Assembly: GCA_000004695.1 (NCBI GenBank)
Contig: CM000151.3
Location: 8,064,001-8,128,000 of the forward strand
Reading direction: 5' to 3'
DNA: 64,000 nucleotides
DNA from: Dictyostelium discoideum
Taxonomy: Eukaryota
Each line of letters starts with the position of its first letter. The stretch's first letter is position 1. The translations under genes were made by a program, and so were the position numbers. Positions 15,828 to 45,993 of this stretch are shown here, one piece after another. The notes beneath the pieces were generated by a model. The model was not told where the DNA came from. It saw only the letters and a list, made by a program, of their open reading frames with translations, and ran no database searches.

Positions 15828-18800
15828 TTAATTTGCGCTTGAAGAAAATCTTTGAAGTTTTCTTTTTAATGGGGCTTCAACAAATCTTTTTTTGTAAATT
15901 ATGAAAACAATAGCAATAATTGCAGCTAGACCTCCAACTGGAACAGCGATCACAACTGGTAAAAACCATGACTCACGATTATTATCATCACATTCATCAA
16001 TGAATTCAGGACTAATCAATACAGAGAAGTCAGGATCTAATAAACATTTCTTTGTACAATGAGGTAAATTCATACCAACTGTAATTGAATCATTTGATTT
16101 TGATACTAACACAGTTTGCATAAATGTTGATATACCATCACTTTCGATTCTGTCTATAAATCTACCATTTAAAACTTTTGCATCTTTTTTAATAGCTATA
16201 TAATTTAATGAATTATCTTGATTTGGTGTACTATTAATTTCAATTTGATCATCATTACAATCATTTTCATTATTTGTTTGAATTTCATTTACACTTGATT
16301 TCATTTGTAATTGTAATGTATTTAAATTACTTGAATATTGATAATTTTCAATTGATACTGTCATTTTAACTGATCCACTTGTTAATTTAAAATTAATGCC
16401 TGCAAATGATACATCTCTATCTTTATTAATTTCTTCAATTGTATATGTGATATTACATTTATCATTTTGAATTGATTGAATGAATGTGTAAACTGTTTTA
16501 CTAATATTTGAAATTATTGACCATTTATTTAATAATAGATACTCATTGATTTGATTACCATTGAAATCTATCTCTATTAATTTTGTAATTAAAATTTGAT
16601 AATTTGTTTGTTGATTTGTAATATTTGTATTACCAGTATTACCATCTATTGTTGTATTAGATCCTGGTAATCCACCACTATTATCGCCACCACCACTTGG
16701 ATTTGAATATAAACTACAATCATAACCGCTCCATCTTCCAATACAATTACAATATCCAGTTGTTGTATTACAAATACCATTTGATGTCGATGTACAATGA
16801 TTTGGACATTGTTTATCATTTGAATAATATTGATAAATATCTTTTGATGTTACGTTGATTGAATTTTGAATTACACTTACTGATTTTAAACCTGTACCTG
16901 GTGGTGCTTTACAAATAATTTCACTTTCAGATATATTATAAATTGGTATACATTGTTTATTACCAATGAAAACTTGTGGATCAGTATGATTATTACCAAA
17001 CCAACCATAAATTGAAGCGCTACCACCATTGGTATCACTTGGTGAAACTGCTGATATTGTATGTAATGGAATTGAACAATCAATACCAATCCATTCGTAA
17101 GGAGTGATTGGGCATGAACAAATACCAGTCTGATTATTACATTGACCAATATTATTACAATTATTTAAACATTGTTTAAATGGGATTGAGCAATCATCAC
17201 CTTGATGGTTTGAATCACATTTACATTGACCAATATCAGATAAACAGTAACCATTACCATTACAATCATTATAATTTTCAGAACAATTTAAAATTACATT
17301 TATTCCACTTGGATTTAAAGTGAATTGCGTCGTTAAACCTCCAATTGTAATATATGATAAAATATCCTCCAAAGATGGGTCTACCACACTAGAAATTGTA
17401 CAGTATATTTGATAAAATGATGTACTTGAAACTATACAATTATAATTACCAATAGTAATGTTTACAATTGATTGATTAAAAGTAAAGAATGAACCATCGA
17501 AAATTAAACTACTTGAACCCAATACCCAATCTACCATTTCTAATCTTGGTGGTATATCTTGAGTTGACAATGGGAATATATAATTTGGATTGTTACTATA
17601 TATCAAGTAAACAATTGGTGGTGGTTTTATGGTTGTGATTGCACTTATTATTTTATTTGGTTTTATTACTTTGATATCAAATCTGTCTCCATTTTCAGTA
17701 ACTAGAAAGTTTGAGTTAACCCATGAACCACCTATATTTTCACCAAAAATATAATATTCATATTCGACATAATACATTGAATAATTATATATATTTACGA
17801 GTCTAAGATTTGGAATAATAATACCTTTTAAAAAATTTGTTATTATTTTTTGATAATTTATTGTTAAAAATTGTATTTTTAATTATGAAAAAAAAAAAAA
17901 AAAAAAAAAAAAAAGAATTTTTAAACTTACTTGGTGAAGATGGTTGATTCAAATTTGAAAAAGAATTACCAATGAATCTAGATTCTAAATCTATATTAAC
18001 TAATCCAAAGAAACATGTAAAACATGATGGAATTAATCCAGTCATTGAGTTATTACTTACAATTAAATCTAATTCACAATATGAATCATCAATTGTTCCA
18101 GTTATTTGATTAAAACTAATATCGATGCTTGTTAATTTATTATTAATTGTTCTATTGAAAATTGGTAAAGAACCTGACATTACATTATCGACTAAATTTA
18201 ATTTTTTAACATTTGTAAATAATGAAAAATCAAATGTTTCAATATATGCATTTTTGAGGGTGAACTCTTCAAATTTTTCATTTGTTGGTAAAATAAAAGG
18301 AAGTGAACCACCAAATGTAAAACCTCTACCAGTATCTTTAAAAATTAATTCTTTCATTGATTTACCAACTAATGATAAATCAATTAAAGATGGTGGGCTT
18401 AAAAGTAGTGTTCTTTCAAATTCACTTTTTTTTTTTTTTTAGTGTTAGCTATTTTCAATTATCCAATTAATAAATCAATATAAACACAAATAAAACTTAC
18501 ATTCTTGTTAAATTTTCAGCTCTAATTTGTGAAAATTCAATTGATGGGAAATTTATCTCATCATATACCTGAATTGATAAAGTATTTAAACTTTCACACT
18601 GAGTAATATTAATCCATGAAGATTGGTCAAAACCTGGAAGAAGAACAAGTTGGAAATATGCATTTATATATTTAAATGAAGGTACATTTAAGGATACAAC
18701 TTTAATATAAGATGGATTCCATATGAAGGTTCCATCTAGATCATTTTCAAAATAAATTAAATGAGATCCTATTCCAATAATACTTGAAGTTTGTATTGAT

Positions 18801-18838
<38 letters not shown>

Positions 18839-19392
18839 AGGAATTAGTTAAAAATTATAAATAATATTAAATTTTTAAAATATACATACACTTGATCTGC
18901 TTTAGAAAATATTGAAAATTTAATTTGAGTAGGAAAGGTTTGAGTTTTCATTGTTACTGAAAAATATAAAACAGTAGGTGGAAGTGGTAAAAACTGTATA
19001 TTCTCTTGAATAAGATCAAATCTTGTGGTTTTTTGAGGAAGTGAAGAATATAAAATATCACTATCTAAAACAACTGTACTTAGTGAAAGAGATGTCATGT
19101 TTTCATAACATAAAAAATCATCACCCAAAACATATGACATATTTGATTGTCCAAGGTTTAAAGTGGAAATGTAATTTTTATCACAACCAATATATAACAT
19201 TGGTTGAAAAAAAAAATCAGCTTTACAAAAATCATATTTTGATGTTGTGACATTTGGTGTGAGTTTTGAAATTGTACCCAAATTGGTTAATAAAGTTTTT
19301 ATACAATCATATTCTTTTTGGCTTAACTGTTGTTGTGAATTTACACAAATTATTAAAAAAAAAAACAACAATAGTGAATTTAAAGAAAACAT
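15828..19392 (-). CDS. Type I membrane protein with LRR, EGF, IPT/TIG and TM regions, paralog A (tgr-like). Four exons: 19392..18890, 18800..18501, 18397..17931 and 17824..15828.
   Basis: Exon 1 has a signal peptide and a Cys-capped N-terminus (MFSLNSLLLFFFLIICVNSQQQLSQKEYDC...). Exons 2-3 carry plant-type LRR-like repeats (LNLVDNVMSGSLP, ISFNQITGTIDDSYC, NNSMTGLIPSCF). Exon 4 carries EGF-like repeats (CNGNGYCLSDIGQCKCDSNHQGDDCS), an IPT/TIG domain (HTISAVSPSDTNGGSASIYGWFGNNHTDPQVFIGNKQCIPIYNISESEIICKAPPGTGLKSVSV), a conserved unknown domain and a TM anchor (FLPVVIAVPVGGLAAIIAIVFIIYKKRF). The splice phases are consistent: GTATGT, GTAAGT and GTAAGT donors with aag acceptors. Confidence 0.7.
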
Positions 19393-19725: not shown

Positions 19726-19757
<32 letters not shown>

Positions 19758-20185: not shown

Positions 20186-20435
20186 TTTAGTAATCACCAA
20201 TAATATTATTATAAAACTTAAAAAAATAAAGTTGGTTTTAATTCATAATATTCGTTGTTTTTTTTTTTTTTTTTTTTTTTTTACATTAATGAGTAGATCT
20301 ACGAATATTTTGTTTTGCGCTTGGGATGCAGTAATGAATCTTAGCTATTTGAATTTTAATTTCTTTTTTTTTAAAGTTATTACATTTCTAAATGGGATTC
20401 GATCCCTTGACCCAAAGTTTTATTTTTAAAAAAAG

Positions 20436-20506
20436 TGCCGCGACCTGGAATCGAACCAGGGTCAACAGAGCCACAATCTGATGTACTACCACTATACTAT
20501 CACGGC
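20436..20506 (-). tRNA. tRNA-His (anticodon GTG)
   Basis: The minus-strand sequence is GCCGTGATAGTATAGTGGTAGTACATCAGATTGTGGCTCTGTTGACCCTGGTTCGATTCCAGGTCGCGGCA (71 nt). It has a cloverleaf and a canonical GGTTCGATTCC T-arm. Its acceptor, D-arm and anticodon loop (TTGTGGC) are near-identical to eukaryotic tRNA-His-GTG. Confidence 0.85.
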
Positions 20507-20555
20507 GAATTTTGATATTTTTTCAAAAAACTGCTCACACCGATTTTATATTTTT

Positions 20556-20617
<62 letters not shown>

Positions 20618-21299
20618 CCGAAAACATTCTTTCAGGGAATTTCCAGAATTTTAAATTTTTAAAGTCGAATAAAGATTTTAAAGAAAAAAAAAGAAATGAA
20701 TAAATTGGCAAATACAATAATGACAGAATCAACAGAAACATTGGCAGATAAAATCAAGAAATCAAATGAACTCAGAACAAAGTTCAAATATTTAAAAAAT
20801 ACGTACAGAACACTTGATAAAATAAGCGAAGCAATATACCACACTCAAATTGAACTAAAACAATCACAGCAAAGAAAAATGCACCTTTAAAGCAAATTTA
20901 AAGAAAAGTTGATTTAAATTGGATTTAAATTGAATTTAAAGCCGCGTTTAAAAAATTCATTTTTAAGGTAATTTTTAAGGTAATTTTTAAGATATTTAAA
21001 AATGCCTTTAAAATTTGCTTTAAAATAAATTTTTAAGCAATTTTAAAGGTGATTTTAAAGGTGATTTTAAAGGTGATTTTTAAGGTAATTTTTAAGATAA
21101 TTTTTAAGATATTTAAAAATACCTTTAAAATTTATTTTAAATTAATTTTAAATAGGATTTAAAGTAGATTTAAAGTATATTTAAAGTGAATTTAAATTTC
21201 CTTTAAACATAAATTTAAGGTTTTTAATAAAAAAGATCTAATTTTAGAACAAAAAAATGGGGATAAAATATTCTATCATTTTTAAATTTTTCATCAAAG

Positions 21300-21440
21300 C
21301 AATCAAATGGTTTAATGGTTGATGAGACTACCCTTTGATAGAGGGTCGGGGGATCGAATCCCTTTTGGTAATTTTTGAAAAATTAAAAAAAAAATTTTTA
21401 AAAAATTTATCCGTTAAATAACGGCTTCGAACTCAGGACC
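21300..21440. other. tRNA-like fragments embedded in the retrotransposon 5' region (not a functional tRNA call)
   Basis: The plus-strand segment gtttaatggttgatgagactaccctttgatagagggt folds as a D-arm plus an anticodon arm (loop TTGATAG). The T-arm-like GGGGGATCGAATCCC is degenerate and no acceptor stem pairs. A second fragment is an imperfect hairpin, ccgttaaataacgg. These may be remnants of the tRNA target or part of the element's B-module. Confidence 0.2.
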
Positions 21441-21621
21441 TCGCTTTTAAAGCCATTAAAAAGGTAATTTTAAAGGTAATTTTAACGGCGTTCTAAAGAC
21501 CCCCTAAAAATTACCTTTAAAATTACCTTTAAAATTTTTTTAATTCAGGACTTTAAAGCAAATTTAAATTTAATTTAAAGCGAATTTAAAGGTGGTTTTT
21601 TCTTCGCTGTGATATAAATTC

Positions 21622-22803
21622 ATGATCAATATCCCAGATGAGATATCCAACAACTTGAAAGCAGAATTGGAAATCCATTTACAAGGAGATGATAAGATAA
21701 TAACAAGTAAGAATAAATTCAAAATCCTCACGGACTGCAGAACTCAAGTAATCAAGTACTCTAACGTTTTCAACGGAGTACTAAAAGGAGTTCACAGAGC
21801 AATAATAAAACCAAAAAAGATCTTCAAAACATTCAACTGGGAAAAATCAATGGACATAGTAGAAAAAACATTGCATGAAGAAGGACTGGAAATAATCAAA
21901 TTAGATAATTTAGGTGAAAACCTGATAATACACTCATTCAACTCAATTATCAGTCCAGAGCACAAAGACCAGCTAATACATTGTAAACACATAACAATAC
22001 TATTCCTCACTACAACAGAAGAAACAAAAAATCAAAGAAAAACAAATAGGGAAATCGAAGACGAAATCTCAGAAAACTCAAAAATCACGGAACTACCAAA
22101 TTCCGAGACAAAGGAAAACACAAGAATAAACATAAAATCAAAAGAAGAATTCAATCATAAAAACACTAGCGAATCAAAAAATAACAACAAAAACAAAATA
22201 GAAAACAAAAAAGAAAATAATAAAGAAATCAATAATGAAAACATCAAAGACAAGAGCAAAAACGAAAAAGTAAAGGAAAAAGAAATTGAAAATAAAAAAC
22301 CCACAACAATTAGAGCAACAACAACAACCACAACGACAGAAACGACAAATACAATAAACAATATTGAAAAGAGAAAAGTACTTCGTATCCCACCAATAAC
22401 AGTAACATATAGTGTTGACAGCAAAGAGAAAAGGAGAATGGAGTTAACTGAAGATGAAGAAGCATTAGAAGTGGTAAGAAAGATGTTCGAAAATGAAGAA
22501 GAGAACAGAATTTTTGAAGAAAAAATAAATAACCAAAAAAAGAAGGAAACCCCAAGGTTAGCCTCAATCAAAAAAAGACAAACAATGTCACCTATCCAAA
22601 ATTCAGAATCTCCAGCAACGCCAGAGATAGTAAAAAGAAAAAGATTCAACTCATCTCCAAACCCAACAACTAATCACCAAGAAATTTTAACACCTTACAA
22701 AACTCCAATTAAAATAACAAAGGAAGAATCAGATTTAATGGAAGCAGCACTAAGAGACAAATTGCCCAAAGTACTCCAAGACGTACTTCCATCTGTCTCA
22801 TTT

Positions 22804-22809
<6 letters not shown>
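21622..22809 (+). CDS. Retrotransposon ORF1 (nucleic-acid-binding, Lys/Glu/Asn-rich)
   Basis: A 395-aa ORF lying immediately upstream of ORF2 and separated from it by a poly(A) stretch. Its composition is typical of LINE ORF1. Confidence 0.55.
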
Positions 22810-22853
<44 letters not shown>

Positions 22854-22856
<3 letters not shown>

Positions 22857-25802
22857 ATAAAAATAATGACCTGGAATTGCCAAGGTTGCTCAACAATCAA
22901 AAGCATGAATCAGACAAAAAATACAATTAACCTAATAAAACCTGATATATCAATACTAACAGAAACAAATCTAAAAAAGGATCAAAATCTAGCGCAAATC
23001 AAAAACCATTACTCAACAGGAGGAAAAGGAAAAGAAGCAAGAGGAAAAGGAGTAATGGCAATAAATCACCTAGAACAAATAGAAATTAAAAACTTGGAAG
23101 AAAAAGAAGGCAGAATCTTAAAATTTACTGCAATTCTAAACAATACGGAAATCAACATAATTGGCATCTATGCACCAGCCTCATATGACAGAAGAAAAGG
23201 ATGGTTTTCAAACAATATTTCCCTTGGAGATCTAGAACAGGCAGACATAGTTACTGGTGACTTTAACATCAACAAATATGCAAAAATCAAGTTCAAAGAT
23301 GGATCATCCGATAAGAGAAAATTCACAGAAAATGAAACAATAGAATTCCTAATGATGGAAGTAGGACTCACCGAAATACTACCAAATTCAACAACTAAAA
23401 CAACCTTCAAAGATAAACTAATCGATAGAACATTCTTATCAACAAAGATGCACCAACTCAATCACTCGTACAAGATAATAGATAAAATAAACAAATCAGA
23501 CCATAACATAGTAGTGATGGATTTCAAAATACCAAATTTCACAAAAATATACAAATCACCCCTATGGAAAATGAACTCAATAATAATTAAAGAAGATAAA
23601 ACAATAAAAAAGATAGAAAAAATAATCGACCACTACCAGGAAACCAAAAGAAAAAACCTTAACATAACGGAATACTGGATTAAGTTCAAAAAAAAAATAA
23701 AAAAACAATGCATTACAACAGAAAAGAAAAGAATACTAGAGAGAAAAAAAACGCTATCAAATCTAGCAAATGAACACACAAAAACAAAAAACAAATATGA
23801 AAAAGAAACAATATCGAACGAAATAACAATACTTCAAGAAGAAGAAAGAATAGACAGAATGATCAAAAGCTCAATCAACTACATCAACAATAAAGAAATA
23901 GCATCAAATCTCCTTACATCTATTCTTAAAAAAAGAGACTCGAGCTCCCAGATTCACAGAATAAAGAACCCATCCAATGGAGAAATCGAAACAGAACAAA
24001 AAGAAATAACAGATTGCTTCAGAAAATATTACGAGACACTCTTCAAAGAGAAAGAATGCGACCAAGAAACACATACAGAACTTCTAAGCACCTGGAACCC
24101 ACCAATAGATAAAAAAAAATTAACAGAGATGGAAGACAGAATCGAAGAATATGAGGTTAAGCTAGCAATAGAAAAGATAGCAGAAGGTAAATCACCAGGA
24201 GAAGATGGAATAACATCTTCATTCTATAAAATCCACCAACACAAACTAATTCCAATCCTCACAGAACTATTCAACTTCTTTTTAAACAATGAAATTCCAA
24301 CAGAATTCAAGAACGGTATCCTTACATCAATATACAAAGGTAAAGGGGATGTCTTGGAAATCTCAAACAGAAGACCAATAACGTTACTCAACGTAGACTA
24401 CAAAATCTACTCAAAAATAATCAACAATAGAATACTAAAAATCCTGCCAAACATAATCTCAAAGTACCAGAACGGTTTTATACCAGGAAGGCTACTCCAC
24501 AACAACATTATAGCTTTGGATTTAGCAATGGAAAAGAGTGATAGAAACACGATAATCACCTTTTATGACTTCGAAAAAGCCTTCGATTCAATATCTCATA
24601 AAGCGTTAATAAGGACTCTAAACCATCTAAAGTTCCCTCGGAAAATAACAAACACAATACTAAGCATGTTAACGAACACCAACATAAGGGTCATGGTAAA
24701 TGGACAACTCTCTGAATCCTTCAGAGCAGGAAGAGGTACAAAACAGGGCGACCCAATTTCACCAACTCTCTTCGCTATAGTATGTGAATGCTTATCAACA
24801 TCAATAAGAAAAGACAATACCATAATAGGCATAAAACTCAATCAGAACAATTCGATGAAGATTGGACAATATGCAGACGACACAGTCACACTAGCCAGTA
24901 ACATAGATGACGCAGATAAAATGGATATGAAAGTTATAAAATTTTGCCAAGCCACAGCAGCAAAAATAAACGATAATAAATGTGTGTGCATCACTAAAAA
25001 CCCAAAGATAAAGACCAAATATAAGACAATTGGGGCGAAAGAAGAAGAAAGATATCTTGGCTTTTTCTTCAACCGCAAAGGTGTAATAAGCAAAGTAGAT
25101 GATACGGTGAACAAACTGGAAAACCTCACAAAATGCTATTCGAGCGTGTCATCAACGCTAAAAGGTAGAATCACAATCCTCAAATCATACCTGCTGTCCC
25201 AACTAACATTCCAACTATACATCAACGAAATAAATGACATAAAGAAACTGGAGAACGTTAATGCCAACATGTTATTCAAAGGGGACAGGTGGGCTATCTC
25301 AAAAGAAAGGAGCAGAAGAGACTATGAAATTGGAGGCCTGGAACTCTGGAATATGGCAACCAGATCCAATGCCCAGAAAGCATGGATATACGAACAATAC
25401 CTCAGAGAAAAAGACGACCAGAACTGCCCTCCACATATGGAAGTCTGGAAGTCGGAAAAAGAAAACTCACTATCAAGGATTCACATCAAATGCTGGAAAG
25501 CCTGGAAGTTGTTGCACCACCCAAGAGAGCGAATAACTCTCAAACTAAACCAAGTCAAACCCAAATATGAAAACAAACAAAAATTAAAAGTAATCTATAG
25601 AAACATGATGGATATCAAATACAAGGGATGGAACAAACACCAGCCAACAACAGGTCAAAAACTGATTCAAAAGAACATTAATCACCCAATTCTACCATTT
25701 AGAGAAGCCAGATCAATCACAACTATCAAAGGAAGAGACTTAGCATGGAGGTATCTACTCAAGGCACTTCCAAAACACCATGGGGAGAATTGCCACTTGT
25801 AA
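22854..25802 (+). CDS. Retrotransposon ORF2: apurinic-type endonuclease plus reverse transcriptase
   Basis: A 982-aa ORF. It has an EEP/APE-like N-terminus, RT motifs (PGRLLHNNIIALDLAMEK; FYDFEKAFDSISHKALI; GTKQGDPISPTLFAIV; QYADDTVTLA) and a C-terminal Cys/His-rich segment (HHGENCHL). Confidence 0.85.
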
Positions 25803-26281
25803 AGAAGAAGAGTCGTCTATGCACATCTTCTTCGAATGCAAATCAATAAAACAGGATATCGACTCAATCTATCAAAAGGTCTGTAAAGACTCTAACAACA
25901 CTTACCACGGTCCATGGAGCGAAAAAGTTCTCGGAAAACTACTCACACCATTCTCATCAAATCTGATAGGAGCCATTATGGAATCGATATGGTACAGAAG
26001 AAATCAAATAAAATTCAACGATAACACTACAATAATAACAGAGAACCAAATAATTCATAAAATCAAAAAAGCGAGAGATGCCGAATGGGATAGAACAAGA
26101 AAGATAGTAGAAAAGCAACTACGTCAAGAACTAAAATGCACTGATAACCGAGAGTCAATCAATCGGACCGCATCAATAAAAAGAAGACTCGAAAAATTCA
26201 GCCACAACTGGAACTCGAAACTCATGACCATAAACATCCCGGAACACTTCATACCATACTGCTCATATAACACCAACTACT

Positions 26282-26286
<5 letters not shown>
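25780..26286 (+). CDS. Retrotransposon 3' ORF. This is a possible out-of-frame continuation of the ORF2 C-terminal Cys-rich region.
   Basis: A 168-aa ORF that overlaps the ORF2 stop. It contains CKEEESSMHIFFECKS and ends in the duplicated 3' module. It may indicate a frameshifted, non-autonomous copy. Confidence 0.3.
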
Positions 26287-26318
<32 letters not shown>

Positions 26319-26382
26319 ATAACAATAATAATAATAACAATAATATAATAATAATATAATAATAATAAAAAAAAAAATAAGA

Positions 26383-26416
<34 letters not shown>

Positions 26417-26676
26417 ACAAATAAACTCTCCTAGAACACACTCAAATTGAGTGATGTTATTAAAAAAAAAAAAAAAATTTTATATTTTACCTTTATGGAT
26501 AGTAGAAAAGCAACTACGACAAGAACTAAAATGCACTGATAACCGAGAGTCAATCAATCGGACCGCATCAATAAAAAGAAGACTCGAAAAATTCAGTCAC
26601 AACTGGAACTAGAAACTCATGACCATAAACATCCCGGAACACTTCAGACCATACTGCTCATATAACACCAACTACT

Positions 26677-26717
<41 letters not shown>

Positions 26718-26890
26718 ATAACAATAATAATAATAATAATATAATAATAATAATAATATAATAATAATAATAATAAAAAAATAAGAATAAAATAAAAAAA
26801 AAAAAATATATAAAAAAAAAAAAAACTACAAATAAACTCTCCTAGAACACACTCAAATTGAGTGATGTTATTAAAAAAAACAATGACAGC
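26104..26890 (+). repeat. Tandem duplication of the retrotransposon 3' module (about 395 bp, two copies), each with poly(A), (ATAATA)n and a shared tail motif
   Basis: The block atagtagaaaagcaactacg(t/a)caagaactaaaatgcactgataaccgagagtcaatcaatcggaccgcatc...ctcatataacaccaactactcataaaaaaa occurs at 26104-26315 and again at 26499-26715. The tail ctacaaataaactctcctagaacacactcaaattgagtgatgttatt occurs at 26414 and again at 26826. Confidence 0.8.
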
Positions 26891-26924
26891 AAAAAAAAAA
26901 AAAGTTTGTTTACAATTATTTTTA

Positions 26925-29032
26925 TTATTTTCTGTTTAATAATTTAATCTGTCTTTTGAAACGGGCCTCAACAAATCTTTTTTTATAAATTACGTATAAT
27001 AGTGCTATAATCAAAGCACATGCAACCACTGGTACGGTAATGGCAACTGGTAAAACCCAAAATTTTTGATCATTTCCACGGCACCCGTCAACGAATTCAG
27101 GACTAACCAATACAGAGAAGTCAGGATCTAATAAACATTTCTTTGTACAATGAGGTAAATTCATACCAACTGTAATTGAATCATTTGATTTTGATATTAA
27201 TACAGTTTTCATAAATGTTGATATTCCATCACTTTCGATTCTGTCTATAAATCTACCATTTAAAACTTTTGCATCTTTTTTAATTGTTATATAATTTAAT
27301 GAATTATCTTGATTTGGTGTATTATTGATTTCAATTTGATCATCGTTACAATCATTTTCATTATTTGTTTGAATTTCATTTACACTTGATTTCATTTGTA
27401 ATTGTAAAGTATTTAAATTACTTGAATATTGATAGTTTTCAATTGATACTGTCATTTTAACTGATCCACTTGTTAATTTAAAATTAATACCTGCAAATGA
27501 TACATCTCTATCTTTATTAACTTCTTCAATTGTATATGTGATATTACATTTATCATTTTGAATTGATTGAATGAATGTGTAAACTGTTTTACTAATATTT
27601 GAAATTATTGACCATTTATTTAATAATAGATACTCATTGATTTGATTACCATTGAAATCTATCTCTATTAATTTTGTAATTAAAATTTGATAATTTGTTT
27701 GTTGATTTGTAATATTTGTATTACCAGTATTACCATCTATTGTTGTATTAGATCCTGGTAATCCACCATTATTACCACCACTACTGCCACCACCACTTGG
27801 ATTTGAATATAAACTACAATCATAACCGCTCCATCTTCCAATACAATTACAATATCCAGTTGTTGTATTACAAATACCATTTGATGCCGATGTACAATGA
27901 TTTGGACATTGTTTATCATTTGAATAATATTGATAAATATCTTTTGATGTTACATTGATTGAATTTTGAATTACGCTAACTGATTTTAAACCTGTACCTG
28001 GTGGTGCTTTACAATTAATTTCACTTTCAGATATATTATAAATTGGTATACATTGTATATTACCAATGAAAACTTGTGGATTAGTATGATTATTACCAAA
28101 CCAACCATAAATTGAAGCATTACCACCATTGATGTCACTTGGTGAAACTGCTGATATTGTATGTAATGGAATTGAGCAATCATTACCAGTCCATCCAAAA
28201 GGAGTGATTTGACATGAGCAAATACCAGTTTGATTATTACATTGACCAACACTATTACAATCATTTAAACATTCTTTTAATGGTAATCCACATGCATCAC
28301 CTTGATGATTTGAATCACATTGACATTTACCAGTTAGAGTTGTACAAATACCATTACCATTACAGTCAAGTGGATTACAATCGATATATGGCAAAGAACA
28401 ATCATCACCTTGATGTGTTGAATCACATTGACATTTACCAATATCAGATAAACAATAACCATTACCATTACAATCATTATAAGCAGAACAGTTTAAAATT
28501 TTATTTATTAAACCTGGATTTAAAGTGAATTGAGTTGTTAAATTACCAATTGTAATATATGATAAAATGTTTTTAAAGGAATCTATACTATTGAAGACTG
28601 TACATGATATTTGATTAAATGATGTACTTGTTACAAAGCAATTATCGCTACCAATTGTAATATTTACAATTGATTTATTATATGTAAAGAATGAACCATC
28701 GAAAACCAAATTCAAAGCACTTGATTGCCAATCAACCTTTTCTAAAAGAGGATTAATATTTCTGGTTGATAATTTAAAAAAATAGTTTGGATCCACTGGG
28801 CTATATTTCATGGAAATAACATCTGGAAGTTTTGAATAAGACACAACCCTTATTAATTTATTAACAATTAAAAATTGACTAGCATAATAACTACCAAAAT
28901 CATCAACAACCAAGTTTGTTGGAATCCAAATACCACCTAAATTTTCACCAAATATAAAGAATTCATACTCTAAATAAGTTGTAAAATTCTTTACATTACC
29001 TGGCATAAAGTTTGGAATAATTATTGCTAAAA

Positions 29033-29086
<54 letters not shown>

Positions 29087-29666: not shown

Positions 29667-29758
<92 letters not shown>

Positions 29759-30099: not shown

Positions 30100-30193
<94 letters not shown>

Positions 30194-34023: not shown

Positions 34024-34948
34024 ATGTTAAAATTTATTCAAAAAATTTCAAAATCAAGGTGTAATTTTTTATATATATTTTTAATTTTAATTTTAATTAA
34101 TTTTTCAAATCCAAAAGTAAATTCTCAAACATTAAATAAAAATGAATATGATTGTTTAAAGAGTTTGTTAACCAATTTGGGATCAATCAATAAAGTTAAA
34201 ATTAATGCAACATCTTTAGAATATTTATTTTGTGGTACAATGGAATTTTCATCACCAAATGTTCAAATATTTTGTAATGAAGGTTCAATTTCAAAACTAA
34301 ATGTAGGACAAGCTAATTTCACATATACAGTAACTGATGATTTTTCATGTTTTAAAAATATGACTGAATTATCAGTGGATGATATTGTTTATGATAAAGA
34401 TAAATTTTATAATTAATATCCTCCAAATGCAAAAGAATTTTCATTTGATGGCACTGATTTAGTTTATGGAACTATTTCACCAATTATTAAAAAATATAAC
34501 TCAATGTCAATACAAAAAATACCAACAATAATTAAATTTTCTTGGTATTTAAATACAACTAAAATGTAGGTATAAAATAAATTATTATTATAATTAAAAT
34601 TATTTTTTTTTTAATCATTTTTATTTTCCTATTTAAAAAAAAAAAAAAAGTCATATAGAACTCTTTAGTACCTTTTAAAGGATATTTTTTAGTTTCATTT
34701 GATAATGATCTTGATGGTTCAAAAATTTGGGATTGTTCTATTTTAATTCATTCTCTAAATGTTCCATCATTAAATTTTATTACAGGCGATATTTCTTTAA
34801 ATCTAATGTTAGATTACGATCAATCATCATGGGGAAATATTACAACTTTTGGAGGAATGAGATATATGTCTCTAAGAGCTTCAGATTTATCATCTTTTCC
34901 ATTAGAGTTTTCAAATTTAAGATCTGAAGTTTTAAAATCTATGTATGT

Positions 34949-34992
<44 letters not shown>

Positions 34993-37621
34993 GACAAAAA
35001 AAAAAAAAAAAAAAGATATATTGAAATACCATTTTTAGCAGTATCTTCAAAGATTGATTTATCATTAATAGGAAAATCATTAGAATCATTATCTTTTTTT
35101 CATCCAAATAATTTTACATTTGGCGGCTTATTTCCAATAATTTTACCATCCAATGAAGCATTTAAAAAATTGGAATTTGTTAATGGAAATATTGAAACAT
35201 TTGATTTTTCATTATTTACAAATGTTGAAACATTATCATTAGAAAGTAATTTAATGTCAAATGATTTTCCTTCAAGTTTCAATAGAACAATTCATAGAAA
35301 ATTAAAACACCTTGATATAAGTAATAATAAAATGACAGGTACAATTGATGATTCATTTTGTCAATTAGAAATCATTGTTACAAATAATTCAATGACAGGT
35401 TTAATTCCAACTTGTTTTACATGTTTCTTTGGATTACCAGAAATAAATTTAGAAAGATATTTTATTGGAAATAATTTTATAAATTTAAATACACCTTCTT
35501 CACCATGTAAGTGTTTTATTTTTTATTTTTTATTTTTTATTTTTTATTTTTTATTTTTTTTTTTTAATTTGTTTTTTTTTACTAATTCCATTTATGATAT
35601 ATATATATATTTGTATTTAAGCAATTATCATTCCAAATATAGTTTTTAATAATACTTCAATTATTGAGGGTATTCCAATAGTTTTTTATGAATATTTAAT
35701 ATTTGGTGAAAATTTAGGTGGTAGTTGGGTTCCATTTACAGCTGTCTCTGATTCTGTAGGAACACCAATGATTTTTTCAATGATTGAGTCAAATAGTTTA
35801 TTTAAAGTATTTTGCTATGGAGAGCCCAAGTTTCCTTTAAACTTATCATACAGTAAGTCTAACCCAAACTATACATTTACTTTATCATTGGGAATACCAC
35901 CAATATTAAATTTAGTAGATTGGCAATCAAGTACAACTGATTTAGTAATAGATGGTTCATTCTTTACATATAATGGTTCTATAATTAATATTACAATTGG
36001 TAATGAAAATTGTTTCGTTACAAATACAAATTTTTATCAAATTAAATGTAAACTTTCAAATGTTATAGATCAATCATTAGAGGATATTATATCATATATT
36101 ACAATTGGTAATTTTAAAACTCAATTCACTTTAAATCCAGGTGTAATAAATACAATTTTAAATTGTACTGAAAATTATAATGATTGTAATGGTAATGGTA
36201 ATTGTTTATCTGATATTGGTAAATGTAAATGTGATTCAACTCATCAAGGTGATGATTGCTCAATCCCATATATAGAATGTTTAAATGATTGTAATAATGT
36301 TGGTCAATGTAATAATCAAACTGGTATTTGTTCATGCCCAATCACTCCTTACGAATGGATTGGTATTGATTGTTCAATTCCATTACATACAATATCAGCA
36401 GTTTCACCAAGTGATACCAATGGTGGTAGTGCTTCGATTTATGGTTGGTTTAGTAATAATCATACTGATCCACAAGTTTTCATTGGTAATAAACAATGTA
36501 TACCAATTTTTAGTATATCTGAAAGTGAAATTATTTGTAAAGCACCACCAGGTACAGGTTTAAAATCAGTAAGTGTAATTCAAAATTCAATCAATGTAAC
36601 ATCAAAAGATATTTATCAATATTATTCAAATGATAAACAATGTCCAAATCATTGTACATCGACATCAAATGGTATTTGTAATACAACAACTGGATATTGT
36701 AATTGTATCGGGAGATGGAGCGGTTATGATTGTAGTTTATATTCAAATCCAAGTGGTGGCGATAATAATAGTGGAATACCAGGATCAAATACAACAATAG
36801 ATGGTAATACTGGTAATACAAACATTACAAATCAACAAACAAATTATCAAATTTTAATTACAAAATTAATAGAGATAGATTTCAATGGTAATCAAATCAA
36901 TGAATATCTTTTATTAAATAAATGGTCAATAATTTCAAATATTAGTAAAACAGTTTACACATTCATTCAATCAATTCAAAATGATATATGTAATATTACA
37001 TATACAATTGAAGAAGTTAATAAAGATAGAGATGTATCATTTGCAGGTATTAATTTTAAATTAACAAGTGGATCAGTTAAAATGACAGTATCAATTGAAA
37101 ATTATCAATATTCAAGTAATTTAAATACATTACAATTACAAATGAAATCAAGTGTAAATGAAATTCAAACAAATAATGAAATGAATGATTGTAACGATGA
37201 TCAAATTGAAATTGATAGTACACCGAACCAAGATAATTCATTAAATTATATAACAATTAAAAAAGATGCAAAAGTTTTAAATGGTAGATTTATAGACAGA
37301 ATCGAAAGTGATGGTATATCAACATTTATGCAAACTGTGTTAGTATCAAAATCAAATGATTCAATTACAGTTGGTATGAATTTACCTCATTGTACAAAGA
37401 AATGTTTATTAGATCCTGACTTCTCTGTATTGATTAGTCCTGAATTCATTGATGAATGTGATGATAATAATCGTGAGTCATGGTTTTTACCAGTTGTGAT
37501 CGCTGTTCCAGTTGGAGGTCTAGCTGCAATTATTGCTATTGTTTTCATAATTTACAAAAAAAGATTTGTTGAAGCCCCATTAAAAAGAAAATTAAAATCA
37601 CTTAGAAATTATAAAAATTAA
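34024..37621 (+). CDS. tgr-like paralog C, a near-duplicate of paralog E, with apparent disruptions. Exons are approximately 34024..34565, about 34651..34942, about 35018..35506 and 35622..37621.
   Basis: Its exon and intron sequence is about 95% identical to paralog E. Exon 1 carries an in-frame TAA at 34414-34416 (aat taa tat cct) where paralog E reads aat tca tat cct, which truncates the reading frame to 130 aa. An extra TAG at 34656 sits in the region used as the exon-2 start in paralog E. Exons 3-4 (LRR, EGF, TIG, TM) are intact. Confidence 0.5.
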
Positions 37622-38197: not shown

Positions 38198-39156
38198 ATG
38201 AAAAAATCTAAATCATTGATTTTTTATTTTTTTTTTATTTTTTTTTTATCTATTCAAGTAAATTCAAATGAATTAAATAAAAAAGAATATGATTGTTTGG
38301 TAAACTTTTTAACAAATTTGGGAAAAATATCAAATGTTGGTAAAAATGAAAAAACATTTGAATATGAATTTTGTAATCCCTTTTTTGTTTCATTACCAAC
38401 CGAAATAAAATGTAATCAAGGTTCAATCACTTATTTAGATACTGTTCAGTCAAATATTAGCTATATAATTAAAGATGAATTATTATGTTTTGATAATATT
38501 AATTATTTTTTACTTTCAAATATTAATTATGATAGTGCCATATTTTTCAATTCTTTCCCAAAGAGTTTAAATAAAGTTATTTTGACTGGAACGAATTTAC
38601 AATTTTCCAAAGTTACAAAAGATCTTCAAACGTTATCGATATCAATTATTTCTCAAAAAATTCCAACTACATTAAAATTTTCTTGGTTTTATAAAACTAC
38701 TCAATTGTATGTATTTATTAAATTTTTAAAAAGTTAAAAATTTGTATTAATTAAATATTAAATTGTTTTTTTGAAAAAAAAAAAAAATAAAAATAAAAAA
38801 AAAAAATAAAAAAAAAAAAAAAAATAAAAAAAAAAAAAAAAAAAAAAAATTAGTATTTTATCATCTACAAGTTTTTCAAGCAATAAAACACATTCAATAG
38901 CATTTGAAAATGATCTTAAAGATTCTGAAATTTGGGAAACTAATTACTTTAATATTATTTCATTAAATTTGCCAAAATTTAATAATGTTAAAGGATTTGT
39001 TCAAATCGAGTTAATAGAAGGATATAATCAAACTTCGTGGTCTAATATTAAAGAGATTGGGAATGTAACAAATATCTATATTAGAACAAATGATTTAACA
39101 GAATTTCCAAATGATCATCTATCAAATATCAGGTCTGATTCGATAGAGAAAATGTA

Positions 39157-39195
<39 letters not shown>

Positions 39196-41854
39196 ATATT
39201 AAATTAAACATTTAATTTTTTTTATTACTTAGAAATTTTGAAGTTCCGTTTAAATCTGTTAAAAAAATGTGCGATTTATCATCAATAGGTAAATCAATTC
39301 AAATTATTTCCTTTTCAAAATGTGGTAGAGATTTTTCATTTAATGGTTTAATGCCAATAATTTTACCAAATAACCAAGATTTTCAATATTTTTTTTTAAT
39401 TGGTGGCTATATTAAGAATTTTGATATTTTGCAATATAAAAGTGCTGAATATATTACATTAAGCAATAATTTGATGTCTGGTACCTTACCTTCAATTAAT
39501 AGTTTTAAATTCGGTAAATTAAAATATATTGATATTGGTTTTAATTTAATAACAGGTGAATTGGATGACTCATATTGTGAATTTGATATTATTGTAAACA
39601 ATAACTCAATGACTGGATTAATTCCAACCTGTTTTACATGTTTCTTTGGACTAACTGAATTAAATTTAAAATCGAGATTCATTGGTAATAATTTTACAAA
39701 TTTAGATCAACCTTCATCTCCATGTAAGTTGAAGTAGTATTTTTTAACTTTTTTTTAAAATTAAAAAGATTGAATAAATTTGAAAAAAAATTACTGACTA
39801 TATTTTATTTATAATAATAAAGCAATTATTTCACCAAATTTGATTTTCTCAAATATTGAAATATTTCAAGGTCAACCTCATTATAAATATTATATCTTTG
39901 GTGAAAATTTAGGTGGGGCTTGGATTGATGAATCAAATGCAGAGATTATTGGCTTTGATGTGAAATTTAGGGTAATAAAACCAAATAAACTAATATCACT
40001 TTACTCTCTTTCATCATTTTCTAGTATTGTAACATTTTCATATAGTAGAATAAATTCAAATTATAGATTTACTTTATCAGCAGATTTAATAACACCAAAA
40101 TTAATAAAGGTTGAATGGGTTAGTAATTCTCAAGATTTAGCTTTTGAAGGTTTTTATTTTTCCTATAATAAATCAATAATTAACATTTCAATTGGTGATG
40201 TTAATTGTCAAGTTACAAGTAGTACTTTTTATAATATTAACTGTACTCTTTTGGCACCAATAGATCTTACTTTAATTGATATTGTATCATTTATAACAGT
40301 TGGTAATTTAACAACTCAGTTCACTTTAAATCCAGGTGTTACAAATAATTTACTATATTGTATTAATGGATGTGGTGGAAATGGAATTTGTTTTTCCGAT
40401 ATTGGTAAATGTAAATGTGATTCGACTCATCAAGGTGATGATTGTTCATTACCATATATTGAATGTCCAATTAATTGTACCAATTTAAGTGTATGTAATA
40501 ATGTAACTGGTGAATGTTCATGTCCATCATTCTTAATTTGGAGCGGTATTGATTGCTCATTTCCATTACATACAATATCTGCAGTTTCACCAAGTGATAT
40601 CAATGGTGGTAGTGCTTCAATTTATGGTTGGTTTGGTAATATTCATAATGACCCACAAGTTTTCATTGGTACTAAACAATGTATACCAATTTATAATATA
40701 TCTGAAAGTGAAATTATTTGTAAAGCACCACCAGGTACAGGTTTAAAATCAGTAAGTGTAATTCAAAATTCAATCAATGTGACATCAAAAGATATTTATC
40801 AATATTATTCAAATGATAAACAATGTCCAAATCATTGTACATCGACATCAAATGGCATTTGTAATACAACAACTGGATATTGTAATTGTATTGGAAGATG
40901 GAGCGGTTATGATTGTAGTTTATATTCTAATCCAAGTGGCGGTGGCGATAATAGTGGTGGATTACCAGGATCTAATACAACAATAGATGGTAATACTGGT
41001 AATACAAATATTACACTGGTAATACAAATATTACAAATCAACACACAAATTATCAAATTTTAATTACAAAATTAATAGAGATAGATTTCAATGGTAATCA
41101 AATCAATGAATATCTATTATTAAATAAATGGTCAATAATTTCGAATATTAGTAAAACAGTTTACACATTCAATCAATCAATTCAAAATGATAAATGTAAT
41201 ATCACATATACAATTGAAGAAGTTAATAAAGATAGAGATGTATCATTTGCGGGTATTAATTTTAAATTAACAAGTGGATCAGTTAAAATGACAGTATCAA
41301 TTGAAAATTATCAATATTCAAGTAATTTAAATACATTACAATTACAAATGAAATCAAGTGTAAATGAAATTCAAATAAATCATGAAATGAATGATTGTAA
41401 CAATGATCAAATTGAAATCAATAATACACCAAATCAATATAATTCATTAAATTATATAACAATTAAAAAAGATGCAAAAGTTTTAAATGGTAGATTTATA
41501 GACAGAATCGAAAGTGATGGTATATCAACATTTATGCAAACTGTATTAGTATCAAAATCAAATGACTCAATTACAGTTGGTATGAATTTACCTCATTGTA
41601 CAAAGAAATGTTTATTAGATCCTGATTTCTCTGTATTGGTTAGTCCTGAATTCGTTGATGAATGTGATAATGATCGAAAATCCTTTTTTTTACCAGTTGT
41701 TATAGTGGTTCCTATTGTTTTTTTAATTTTAATAATTATTTTTGTAGTTATTACTATAAAAAAAAGATATGTTGAGATGTATTTATTTAAATCAAAAATA
41801 AAACAATTGGCAAACTTAAAAAATATTAAAATAAATAAAAAAACAGAATTATAA
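38198..41854 (+). pseudogene. tgr-like paralog D, frameshifted by a 20-bp tandem duplication. Exons are 38198..38706, 38854..39153, 39233..39723 and 39823..41854.
   Basis: The 20-mer ctggtaatacaaatattaca occurs twice in tandem (40996-41015 and 41016-41035) within the otherwise conserved GNTGNTNITNQQTNYQ region. The 39840..41063 ORF stops at ...NITLVIQILQINTQIIKF*. The conserved C-terminal domains then continue in another frame (41288..41854). The N-terminal half is divergent (MKKSKSLIFYFFF...). Its TM and tail match paralog E. Confidence 0.55.
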
Positions 41855-42400
41855 TAAATAAAAATTTGATTAACAGGATTCATTTTAAAAAATTTTTAAA
41901 TATCTTCCAAACAAATCCAAATATCCATTTTCTTTTTTTTAAAAACAAATCAACACTGAAAATTCTTAAGTTTGTACGGCCGTACACAAAGTAATTTTAT
42001 GCACACCTATTTTACCTTTATTTTCCCTTTATTTTTACATTTTTTTTTTTTTGGTGAATTTTTTAGAAAAAAAAAAAAAAGAAATAAAAAAAACGAAAAA
42101 AAAAAATCAAACACCGCAATTACCTTCCGGCAAAACATTAAAATAAAAAAATAAAAATAAGATATTTTTTTTTAATATTTTCATTTTTGTGTCTGTTCGG
42201 TGTTTCAACCAAAATTTTAATCTATTAATCGTTTTGTTTAAAAAAAAAAAAAATGTTAAAATGTTGGGAAAAAGTTTTTTTTTTTTTTTTTTTAATTTTA
42301 ATTTATTTTATTTTATAATAATTTTATTTATTTTATTTATTTTATTTAATTTTAATTAATTTTATTTTATTTATTTTTCAAAATATATCTCCAAATTAAA

Positions 42401-43337
42401 ATGTTGAATTTTATTCAAAAAATTTCAAAATCTGGGTGTAATTTTTTTTATTTATTTTTAATTTTAATTTTAATTAATTTTTCAAATCCAAAAGTAAATT
42501 CTCAAACATTAAATAAAAATGAATATGATTGTTTAAAGAGTTTGTTAACAAATTTGGGATCAATCAATAAAGTTAAAATTAATACAACATCTTTAGAATA
42601 TTTATTTTGTGGTACATTGGAATTTCTATCACCAAATGTTAAAATATTTTGTAATGAAGGTTCAATTTCAAAATTAAGTGTAGGACAAGCTAATTTCACA
42701 TATACAGTAACTGATGATTTTTCATGTTTTAAAAATATGACTAATTTATCTGTTGATAATATTGTTTATGATAAAGATAAATTTTATAATTCATATCCTC
42801 CAAATGCAAAAGAATTTTCATTTGATGGCACTGATTTAGTTTATGGAACTATTTCACCAATTATTAAAATTTTTGACTCAATGTCAATACAAAATATACC
42901 AACAATAATTAAATTTTCTTGGTATTTAAATACAACTAAAATGTAAGTTTAAAATTAATTATTATTATTATTATTTTAATGAATACTAATAAAATTTTTT
43001 TTTTTATCATTTTTATTTTTCCTATTTAAAAAAAAAAAAGTGTAATAGCCTCTTTCGTACCTTTTAAAGGATATTTTTTAGTTTCATTTGATAATGATCT
43101 TGATGGTTCAAAAATTTGGGATTGTTCTATTTTAATTCATTCTCTAAATGTTCCATCATTAAATTTTATTACAGGTGAAATTACTTTAAATCTAATGTTA
43201 GATTACGATCAATCATCATGGGGAAATATTACAACTTTTGGAGGAATGAGATATATGTCTCTAATATCTTCAAATTTATCATATTTTCCATTAGAATTTT
43301 CAAATTTAAGATCTGAAGTTTTAAAATCTATGTATGT

Positions 43338-43380
<43 letters not shown>

Positions 43381-45993
43381 CAAAAAAAAAAAAAAAAGAT
43401 TTATTGAAATACCATTTTTAGCAGTATCTTCAAAAATTGATTTATCATTAATAGGAAAATCATTAGAATCATTATATTTTTTTCATCCAAATAATTTTAC
43501 ATTTGGTGGTTTATTTCCAATAATTTTACCATCAAATGAAGCATTTAAAAAATTGGAATTTGTTTATGGAAATATTGAAATATTAGATCTTTCATTATTT
43601 ACAAATGTTGAAACATTATCATTAAAATGTAATTTAATGTCCAATGGTTTTCCTTCAAGTTTCAATAGAACAATTCATAGAAAATTAAAACACATTGATA
43701 TAAGCAATAATAGTATTACAGGTACAATTGATGATTCATTTTGTCAATTGGAAATCATTGTTACAAATAATTCAATGACAGGTTTAATTCCAACTTGTTT
43801 TACATGTTTCTTTGGATTACCAGAAATAAATTTAGAAAGATATTTTATTGGAAATAATTTTATAAATTTAAATACACCTTCTTCACCATGTAAGTGTTTT
43901 ATTTTTTATTTTTTATTTTTTATTTTTTTATTTTAATTTGTTTTTTTTTACTAATTCCATTTATGATATATATATATATTTGTATTTAAGCAATTATCAT
44001 TCCAAATATAGTTTTTAATAATACTTCAATTATTGAGGGTTCAATAGTTTTTTATGAATATTTAATATTTGGTGAAAATTTAGGTGGTAGTTGGGTTCCA
44101 TTTACAGCTGTCTCTGATTCTGTAGGAACACCAATGATTATTTCAATGATTGAGCCAAATAGTTTATTTAAATTATTTTGCAATGGAGAGCCCAAGTTTC
44201 CTTTAAACTTATCATACAGTAAGTCTAACCCAAACTATACATTTACTTTATCATTGGGAATACCACCAATATTAAATTTAGTAGATTGGCAATCAAGTAC
44301 AACTGATTTAGTAATAGATGGTTCATTCTTTACATATAATAGTTCTATAATTAATATTACAATTGGTAATGAAAATTGTTTGGTTACAAATACAAATTTT
44401 TATCAAATTAAATGTACACTTTCAAATGTTATAGATCAATCATTAGAGGATATTATATCATATATTACAAATGGTAATTTAATAACTCAATTCACTTTAA
44501 ATCCAGGTGTAATAAATACAATTTTAAATTGTACTGAAAATTATAATGATTGTAATGGTAATGGATATTGTTTATCTGATATTGGTAAATGTAAATGTGA
44601 TCCAACCCATCAAGGTGGTGATTGCTCTTTGCCATATATAGAATGTTTAAATGATTGTAATAATGTTGGTCAATGTAATAATCAAACTGGTATTTGCTCG
44701 TGTCCAATCTCTCCTTATGAATGGAGTGGTATTGATTGTTCAATTCCATTACATACAATATCTGCAGTTTCACCAAGTGATACCAATGGTGGTAGCGCTT
44801 CAATTTATGGTTGGTTTAGTAATAATCATACTTATCTACAAGTTTTCATTGGTAATAAACAATGTATACCAATTTATAATATATCTAAAAGTGAAATTAT
44901 TTGTAAAGCACCACCAAGTACAGGTTTAAAATCAGTTAGTGTAATTCAAAATTCAATCAATGTAACATCAAAAGATATTTATCAATATTATTCAAATGAT
45001 AAACAATGTCCAAATCATTGTACATCGACATCAAATGGCATTTGTAATACAACAACTGGATATTGTAATTGTATTGGAAGATGGAGCGGTTATGATTGTA
45101 GTTTATATTCAAATCCAAGTGGTGGTGGCGATAATAGTGGTGGATTACCAGGATCAAATACAACAATAGATGGTAATACTGGTAATACAAATATTACAAA
45201 TCAACAAACAAATTATCAAATTTTAATTACAAAATTAATAGAGATAGATTTCAATGGTAATCAAATCAATGAATATCTATTATTAAATAAATGGTCAATA
45301 ATTTCAAATATTAGTAAAACAGTTTACACATTCATTCAATCAATTCAAAATGATAAATGTAATATCACATATACAATTGATGAAATTAATAAAGATAGAG
45401 ACACAACTTTCGCAGGTATTAATTTTAAATTAACAAGTGGATCAGTTAAAATGACAGTATCAATTGAAAACTATCAATATTCAAGTAATTTAAATACATT
45501 ACAATTACAAATGAAATCAAGTGTAAATGAAATTCAAACAAATAATGAAAATGATTGTAACAATGATCAAATTGAAATCAATAATACACCAAATCAAGAT
45601 AATTCATTAAATTATATGACAATTAAAAAAGATGCAAAAGTTTTAAATGGTAGATTTATAGACAGAATCGAAAGTGATGGTATATCAACATTTATGCAAA
45701 CTGTGTTAGTATCAAAATCAAATGATTCAATTACAGTTGGTATGAATTTACCTCATTGTACAAAGAAATGTTTATTAGATCCTGATTTCTCTGTATTGGT
45801 TAGTCCTGAATTCGTTGATGAATGTGGTGGTGATAATGATCGAAAATCCTGGTTTTTACCAGTTGTTATAGTGGTTCCTATTGTTTTTTTAACCTTAATA
45901 ATTATTTTTGTAGTTATTACTATAAAAAAAAGATTTGTTGAGATGTATTTATTTAAATCAAAAATAAAACAATTGGCAAACTTAAATAAATAA
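42401..45993 (+). CDS. Type I membrane protein with LRR, EGF, IPT/TIG and TM regions, paralog E (tgr-like), apparently intact. Exons are 42401..42942, 43041..43331, 43399..43889 and 43991..45993.
   Basis: Signal peptide MLNFIQKISKSGCNFFYLFLILILINFSNPKVNS. All splice junctions are phase-consistent (GTAAGT, GTATGT and GTAAGT donors; poly-A introns ending in ag). The 619-aa exon 4 holds EGF x3, TIG, the conserved unknown domain and a TM anchor (FLPVVIVVPIVFLTLIIIFVVITIKKRF). Confidence 0.7.

Follow-up and report, generated by a model that had tools for sequence, protein, structure and literature searches.

A chromosome 2 cluster of five ComC-family genes in Dictyostelium discoideum, with a stalk probably overwritten by gene conversion and distinct heads and tails

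Regional gene conversion has been described in the variable exons of the clustered protocadherins (Pcdh) of fugu and zebrafish, tandem surface-adhesion genes in which the membrane-distal EC1-3 region is divergent and orthologous, whereas in the same exon the sequence nearer the membrane has been homogenised among paralogs in a lineage-specific manner, synonymous sites included (PMC1852091). In Dictyostelium itself, repeated IPT/Ig E-set domains are what defines a Tgr protein (bioRxiv 10.1101/2025.10.22.684067), and a gene table gives comC among the genes essential for development, with EGF domains and a distribution restricted to group 4 dictyostelids (PMC4931340). Here we analyze a stretch of 64,000 nucleotides of Dictyostelium discoideum chromosome 2 (contig CM000151.3, positions 8,064,001 to 8,128,000; hereafter the window), which carries five paralogous genes, A to E, between positions 15828 and 45993. 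We consider it probable, at roughly 0.85, that these are ComC-family genes whose stalk has been overwritten by gene conversion, with heads and tails kept distinct. The closest parallel to this process is found in the clustered protocadherins: the heads of the five genes resemble EC1-3 in being divergent and orthologous, and homogenisation by lineage again affects the membrane-proximal end of the exon, down to synonymous sites. However, the two systems belong to unrelated families and kingdoms, and they differ in that: 1) the fugu tracts are >99% identical and enriched in G+C at third codon positions (GC3), whereas those in the cluster are 96-97% identical and show no rise in GC3; 2) the transmembrane (TM) segment and tail here lie outside the tract as separate cassettes; and 3) inverted copies also exchange sequence.

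Genes A (15828-19392) and B (26925-30791) lie on the minus strand and C (34024-37621), D (38198-41854) and E (42401-45993) on the plus strand, in a window of AX4-type sequence with a G+C content of about 20%, and they match D. discoideum. An earlier note made from the sequence alone had placed five paralogs at these coordinates with a common four-exon architecture, and our splice models bear this out. That note also called the genes tgr-like, which does not hold: by Pfam, all five belong to the ComC family through the domains LRR_ComC, Beta-sand_ComC_2nd and ComC_SSD. 1) The membrane-adjacent ComC_SSD (PF22933) is matched over its entire profile (1-222/222) in A, B, C and E, with E-values of 1.7e-99 to 2e-102, and in D the part following a frameshift aligns to this zone of the other genes at 96-97% nucleotide identity. 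The region of about 250 residues that the earlier note regarded as unknown was therefore already curated in Pfam. 2) LRR_ComC (PF24141) is matched over its entire profile (1-288/288), above the 27-bit cut-off, by full-length B (E 5.5e-16) and by gene E (E 1.5e-13), and by exon 3 alone in A and in B. 3) Beta-sand_ComC_2nd (PF24143) scores 31.6-41 bits in A, C, D and E and 24.9-25.7 bits in B, slightly under its cut-off of 27 bits. 4) EGF_2 and a single TIG domain above threshold (27-33 bits) were also detected, so that the family search proposed in the earlier note does recover both kinds of module, yet within the ComC family. A type I topology can be read off the translations, with hydrophobic N-termini followed by a polar stretch and a hydrophobic segment of ~23 residues after the SSD; the cytoplasmic tails, assessed by eye, are K/R-rich and 20-35 residues long. 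Each gene is accordingly predicted to encode a type I membrane glycoprotein of the ComC family, with the probable order signal peptide, ComC-type LRR, two beta-sandwiches, 2-3 EGF domains, one TIG domain, one EGF domain, a ComC_SSD of ~220 residues, one TM helix and a basic tail.

This whole domain architecture and TM topology, with its three ComC-named domains, matches that of the ComC family, within which the five genes are uncharacterised paralogs rather than comC itself. ComC itself is reported to have a role in developmental cell-cell communication (Kibler et al. 2003). Gene B corresponds to DDB_G0277525, already annotated as 'EGF-like domain-containing protein'; literature searches on DDB_G0277525 and on comC with lagC returned nothing, and we came across no paper that describes the cluster or reports concerted evolution among ComC-like genes. 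Relatives recovered in protein searches are almost all from Dictyostelium (two Logan entries apart) and possess the same Pfam set; a search with the head of D returned 3 proteins and missed annotated D orthologs, so that absence from it is no evidence of absence. No PDB chain shows sequence-level similarity to the SSD. An AlphaFold2 model of the TIG-EGF-SSD region of E (44743-45849; mean predicted local distance difference score 81.5) is all-beta, and its SSD is superposable on members of the galactose-mutarotase-like beta-supersandwich group; further neighbors of this predicted model are the supersandwich domains of glycoside hydrolases and phosphorylases, aldose epimerases and YidC P1, in agreement with the Pfam name of the domain. 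Another neighbor is the luminal domain of GLMP, the accessory subunit of the MFSD1 transporter (8r8q_B; PMC11252000), at only 11% identity; the resemblance is one of fold, seen with a predicted model, and does not point to a transporter partner for the cluster proteins. With these results the family assignment is corrected from tgr to ComC, and the supposedly unknown domain gains a name and a predicted fold.

Alignment of the five genes revealed zones of very different divergence. The head, comprising exons 1-3 and the first ~475 bp of exon 4, shows 35-43% nucleotide divergence in exon 4, with the exception of the pair C-E (1.7-4.9%). It is followed by an intermediate EGF zone (A 17363-17087 and B 28568-28187 on the minus strand; C 36086-36362 and E 44452-44728 on the plus strand), in which divergence is 6-13% within the group A, B, C and E but 20-26% between these four and D. 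The ensuing TIG-EGF-SSD zone of ~1.1 kb, delimited by alignment and breakpoints (A 15993-17086 and B 27084-28186, minus; C 36363-37456, D 40546-41662 and E 44729-45822, plus), is 2.6-4.3% divergent in all ten pairs. In the TM/tail region A is equal to C, D is close to E and B stands alone, as had been noted at the outset. Over the whole N-terminal part of exon 4 (the N-part), nucleotide divergence is 26-35%, the pair C-E (3.4%) apart. Synonymous divergence (dS, by the Nei-Gojobori method) is 0.54-0.90 in the N-part (C-E 0.047), 0.07-0.10 in the TIG-EGF-SSD zone and 0.9-1.6 in the TM/tail (A-C 0.095, D-E 0.03). These zone-wise values indicate that the heads are truly old and that protein-level constraint does not explain the pattern. 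They also qualify the original description of the shared region, which stands as 96-97% identity; synonymous sites, which had been called identical too, are not. A 32-mer quoted from this region in support occurs once in each gene, the copies in A, C and E being exact and those in B and D having 2 mismatches, where shuffled sequences lead one to expect 0.

Of the N-terminal groupings initially suggested, C with E and D apart are evident, and A with B is real but weak: the proteins encoded by exons 1-3 are 51% identical between A and B and 43-48% in the other pairs (C-E apart), informative sites favor AB (23) over BD (14) and AD (9), and bootstrap support is 94-100%. Across the 5' halves, introns and upstream DNA, C (33923-35621) and E (42309-43991) are 4.9% apart; in the 5' halves C differs from its own ortholog in one of the further genomes described below (W) by 5.6% and E from its own by 6.6%. 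As the C-E distance is below both ortholog distances, C and E seem to have exchanged head sequence as well, and to have done so later than the other pairs; the 5' region of Z_5 is not part of this comparison. An extra EGF repeat of 108 bp (28276-28383, minus strand) is present only in B within this window; an extra EGF is also found in an E-type ortholog of D. cf. discoideum (P0002, Z_5), and EGF repeat number hence varies in the cluster.

Several lines of evidence indicate that sequence has been exchanged among the five copies. Likelihood models with three segments beat a uniform rate in every pair (twice the log-likelihood difference 143-404), which contradicts the uniform divergence that had been named beforehand as the pattern telling against mosaicism. 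The 3' maximum-likelihood breakpoint falls just before the TM helix, within ~25 bp in 8 of the 10 pairs, the two exceptions being A-C and D-E, which are alike through the TM/tail. The 5' breakpoint lies at the start of the TIG domain for pairs that include D and ~380 bp further upstream for the remaining pairs. Along the alignment, parsimony-informative sites pass from CE and AB partitions, through a mixture of eight partitions in the middle, to AC and DE. In the pairwise homoplasy index (PHI) test on exon 4, 0 of 5000 permutations were at or below the observed value. A and C share an identical tract of 342 alignment columns spanning the end of the SSD, the TM segment and the start of the tail (global permutation p<0.0005), which the run test marks as the most recent conversion tract; its copy in A lies at 15858-16193 on the minus strand and that in C at 37256-37591 on the plus strand, in inverted orientation and about 20 kb away. 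Several matches reported as longest runs at the extreme 3' end were artefacts of shared gap columns and were disregarded. Finally, the divergence between C and E rises from 1.7% in the initial ~490 bp of exon 4 to 4.2% in the remainder up to the TM segment, implying that the latter part of one of them was overwritten after their heads last shared sequence. Chance is excluded as the source of the zonal pattern.

We then compared the window with syntenic loci in six further assemblies from Holland et al. (PMC12745789), giving seven genomes in all. GCA_054883475.1 (L001), an independent long-read assembly, has almost the same sequence as the window. L002 (R) and L006 (W) carry the label D. discoideum, yet they are 8-10% diverged in the flanks and were treated as an outgroup and not as population samples; L003 and L005 (Z) and L007 (Y) represent D. 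cf. discoideum, and L004 (M) D. dimigraforme. Neighbor-joining trees with bootstrap, one for each zone with the same genes, gave different topologies. In the N-part tree, the B-type heads (AX_B, W_B, Y_B) and the D-type heads (AX_D, R_D, W_D, Y_3, Z_4) each form a clade with 100% bootstrap, and in the TM/tail tree the D/E type is recovered at 100% and A+C at 98%. In the middle-zone tree, by contrast, copies cluster by genome at 75-100% in four lineages and ortholog clades receive 0-2%. In the TIG-EGF-SSD zone, dS between orthologs (0.11-0.17) exceeds that between paralogs in the window (0.07-0.10), a signature of conversion that continued after the lineages split. The zonal pattern is repeated in five further independent assemblies, and the gene order C-D-E is conserved among the genomes. 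A patch of 5 substitutions that within the window is confined to E (45400-45415, DRDTTF versus DRDVSF) lies inside the homogenised zone, and a similar patch in the E ortholog R_E (P0001, DRDTIF) points to a small island in which orthology has been kept.

Together, the PHI result, the partition switches, the three-segment models and the zone-wise trees confirm the earlier proposal of mosaic genes with segment-specific tree discordance; the dS drop within a bounded zone, the by-genome clustering and the inverted A-C tract uphold its gene conversion component. Homogenisation by interlocus gene conversion, recurrent in several lineages, is thus strongly supported. The alternative that survives best, though we regard it as unlikely, is that unequal crossing-over between tandem copies rather than non-crossover conversion was the main process. 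Copy number varies from 5 in the window to at least 6 in Z, C is truncated in W and Y, and C looks as if composed of a head of E type and a stalk and tail of A type, all of which crossing-over could produce. However, A and B are inverted relative to C, D and E and have exchanged sequence with them without rearrangement of the TerD-domain gene that lies between the two arms, and the A-C exchange in particular favors conversion over unequal crossover. Likewise, the many short incompatible partitions of the middle zone and the conserved C-D-E order are not what crossing-over would be expected to leave.

Under gene conversion, the events may be reconstructed as follows. The head (exons 1-3 and ~475 bp of exon 4) is old and has kept its orthology between genomes. 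Non-reciprocal interlocus gene conversion has repeatedly overwritten the TIG-EGF-SSD block of ~1.1 kb in all five copies, as a result of which the copies within each genome evolve in concert; it has reached the EGF zone just upstream less frequently, and there D has taken no part. Three old cassettes, one shared by A and C, one by D and E and one found in B, make up the TM/tail and have been reassorted relative to the heads. The spread of conversion into heads and anchors was probably halted by selection, by sequence divergence of the flanks, or by both. The products may be surface receptors or adhesion proteins that present distinct ligand-binding heads and short tails on a common membrane-proximal stalk.

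Certain observations weigh against this reconstruction. In the middle zone, the genes of R and W do not form clean by-genome clades (0% each, 27% together), their copies being intermixed. Nor is the homogenisation extreme, as paralog dS is about two thirds of ortholog dS. PHI applied to the homogenised zone alone is not significant (p=0.65), its 19 sites being too few to inform. GC3 does not rise in the converted zone, at 0.086-0.102 compared to 0.105-0.183 in the N-part, although such a rise, a mark of biased conversion, commonly accompanies the vertebrate cases. On the functional side, the roles proposed are wholly inferred, and the link to ComC biology comes from Pfam naming and from the role reported for ComC itself.

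The original identification of the genes as tgr-like carried with it the notion of a polymorphic kin-recognition family diversified by conversion, and we consider it improbable that the five genes are allorecognition genes of this type. The cluster does share with the Tgr proteins (TgrB1/TgrC1) its nature as a set of Dictyostelium surface glycoprotein genes with IPT/TIG folds, clustering, pseudogenes, recombination and conversion, and tgr loci show similar dynamics (PMC12745789; bioRxiv 10.1101/2025.10.22.684067). In keeping with a recognition role, the N-part also evolves 2-3 times faster than the stalk at the protein level, the ratio dN/dS (omega) between orthologs being 0.43-0.73 in the exon-4 N-part of B-, C- and E-type genes (~0.2 in D-type) and 0.15-0.32 in the stalk. 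Nevertheless, omega stays below 1: the heads evolve faster, but there is no signal of gene-wide positive selection on them, and they retain their orthology across genomes 8-10% diverged. Moreover, the ectodomain of Tgr proteins consists of repeated IPT/Ig E-set domains, whereas the cluster genes possess the ComC-type set with one TIG domain above threshold alongside LRR, EGF and supersandwich domains, outside the tgr definition quoted above. Tgr genes display a paired B/C arrangement, but those of the cluster are not arranged as divergent B/C-type pairs, and here conversion homogenises and preserves a constant stalk instead of diversifying the recognition part. Extreme within-species polymorphism is a further trait of tgr genes; for the cluster, the single close strain is essentially identical to the window, and the more distant genomes are 8-10% diverged in the flanks too. 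None of the 48 homologs found is a Tgr-named protein, all being unnamed EGF-like or ComC-domain proteins (no direct alignment to TgrB1 or TgrC1 was made), and neither PMC12745789 nor bioRxiv 10.1101/2025.10.22.684067 mentions comC or EGF.

A bolder reading accepts the ComC assignment together with gene conversion and takes the locus to be another surface recognition system of Dictyostelium, separate from tgr and built from variable heads on a constant stalk. Here the old and diverse LRR heads would confer partner or ligand specificity and the three tail cassettes would feed different outputs; conversion would be selected for because it keeps the SSD stalk uniform, such that all members could dock onto one membrane partner, as GLMP does onto MFSD1; and conversion with cassette reassortment would generate new head-tail combinations that differ among strains. 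We offer this joint reading as a speculation with a small chance of being correct. Polymorphism of the heads among closely related isolates, if it were found, would make this locus a candidate for a recognition system.

Two further alternatives seem to us very improbable. The first holds that the five genes are recent whole-gene duplicates whose heads and tails diverged very fast under positive selection. C and E, which are close along the whole 5' part (1.7-4.9%, introns included), would fit such a history; but the dS of the N-part (0.54-0.90), introns as diverged among paralogs as the N-part itself, B-type and D-type heads with orthologs elsewhere at 100% bootstrap and an omega of about 0.5 speak against it. 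The second is that collapsed or mis-joined repeats in the assembly gave rise to false mosaics and lesions. Both lesions of gene C are indeed absent from the near-identical long-read assembly, and of the 22 substitutions that separate it from the window 18 fall in a retroelement and 4 outside; yet the mosaic of B, C and the start of D is reproduced there, with 99.45% identity over 15.3 kb, and the zonal pattern recurs in the five other assemblies. Hardly tenable at all is the view that, without sequence exchange, strong purifying selection on protein or RNA has kept an ancient common domain alike, which the low paralog dN/dS of the zone (0.16-0.33) would suit, given the 7-10-fold fall in synonymous divergence within the zone, the clustering of zone sequences by genome and not by ortholog, and the identity to E of just ~50% for DDB_G0270704 and ~43% for DDB_G0271636, two more distant members of the family, in best local protein alignments that include the same domain.

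The homogenised zone has practical implications. The locus provides a well-controlled seven-genome example, in an amoebozoan, of domain-limited concerted evolution, a known process in a known family. The TIG-EGF-SSD zone is unsuitable for ComC-family trees or ortholog calls, and short reads across it will cross-map between paralogs. In addition, pseudogene calls for C, and perhaps D, in AX4 need rechecking.

Genes C and D had both been described as disrupted, and the lesions are present in the window as read. C contains a TAA stop in exon 1 (34414-34416, plus strand; TCA in L001) and one extra A near 34659 (plus strand), and in D a 20-bp tandem duplication (ACTGGTAATACAAATATTAC, two copies; 40995-41034, plus strand), situated inside the homogenised zone, causes a frameshift. 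Both C lesions are missing from L001, where C reads through to give 1107 residues, and they are two of the very few L001-window differences outside the retroelement. Hence, either they are specific to AX4 or the reference is in error at these sites; it is doubtful that C is a pseudogene, and uncertain that AX4 has two dead genes. The reading frame of D-type genes is open in R, W and Y but interrupted in Z; W and Y have a truncated C, and D. dimigraforme has one broken copy. Given that copy number also varies (5 in the window versus at least 6 in GCA_054859235.1, that is Z) and that different members are broken in different genomes, the birth-and-death turnover posited for the locus is real. 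The syntenic cluster of GCA_054859235.1 (L005 1-13534, L003 5527-12617) contains at least six ComC-like genes, one of them split (L005 10001-12532 and 12625-13534), as well as extra unannotated genes of 862 and 939 residues between the ComC-like genes.

All five genes have three introns at homologous positions, in phases 2, 2 and 1, and the DDB_G0277525 protein served as the guide for intron placement. On the minus strand, gene A, an intact ComC-family gene by splice models, translation and Pfam, has exons at 19392-18890, 18782-18501, 18412 (or 18397)-17931 and 17824-15828, and encodes 1082-1087 residues depending on the choice of intron 2 acceptor; gene B, also intact, has exons at 30791-30286, 30087-29785, 29629-29142 and 29026-26925 and encodes 1132 residues from the ATG at 30791. 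The exons of B match the AX4 protein DDB_G0277525 (P0049, chromosome 2) at 99-100% identity, and Pfam supports the assignment. The P0049 model (1100 residues) begins at an internal Met at 30695; the in-frame ATG at 30791, 96 bp upstream, adds 32 residues with a typical signal peptide, like that of the other four genes. On the plus strand, the exons of C lie at 34024-34565, 34651-34942, 35016-35506 and 35622-37621; as it stands in the window the gene is disrupted, and with the two variants of L001 it encodes 1107 residues. Those of D lie at 38198-38706, 38854-39153, 39233-39723 and 39823-41854, and this frameshifted gene encodes 1103 residues once one 20-bp copy is removed. Gene E is intact (42401-42942, 43041-43331, 43399-43889 and 43991-45993) and encodes 1108 residues.

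Other elements accompany the cluster in the window. In the 20435-26900 region, a non-LTR retrotransposon lies on the 5' side of a tRNA-His(GTG) gene (20435-20506, minus strand), a placement typical of the TRE5 elements of Dictyostelium. Its open reading frames (ORFs) comprise ORF1 (21622-22809), ORF2 (22854-25802), which contains an RVT_1 domain (E 4e-37), and a further ORF (25780-26286); its 3' end bears a 386-bp direct repeat (26103-26472 and 26498-26883, 93.5% identity), and colinearity with L001 ends inside ORF2 at 24608. The TerD-domain gene (32571-33437, E 6e-69) separates the minus-strand arm (A, B) from the plus-strand arm (C-E), and this position is kept in L001, L006 and L007. Two tandem ORFs at 50749-52806 (685 residues) and 53341-55332 (663 residues) have no Pfam match, show DNA cross-matches in the genome comparisons and look like another local pair of paralogs.

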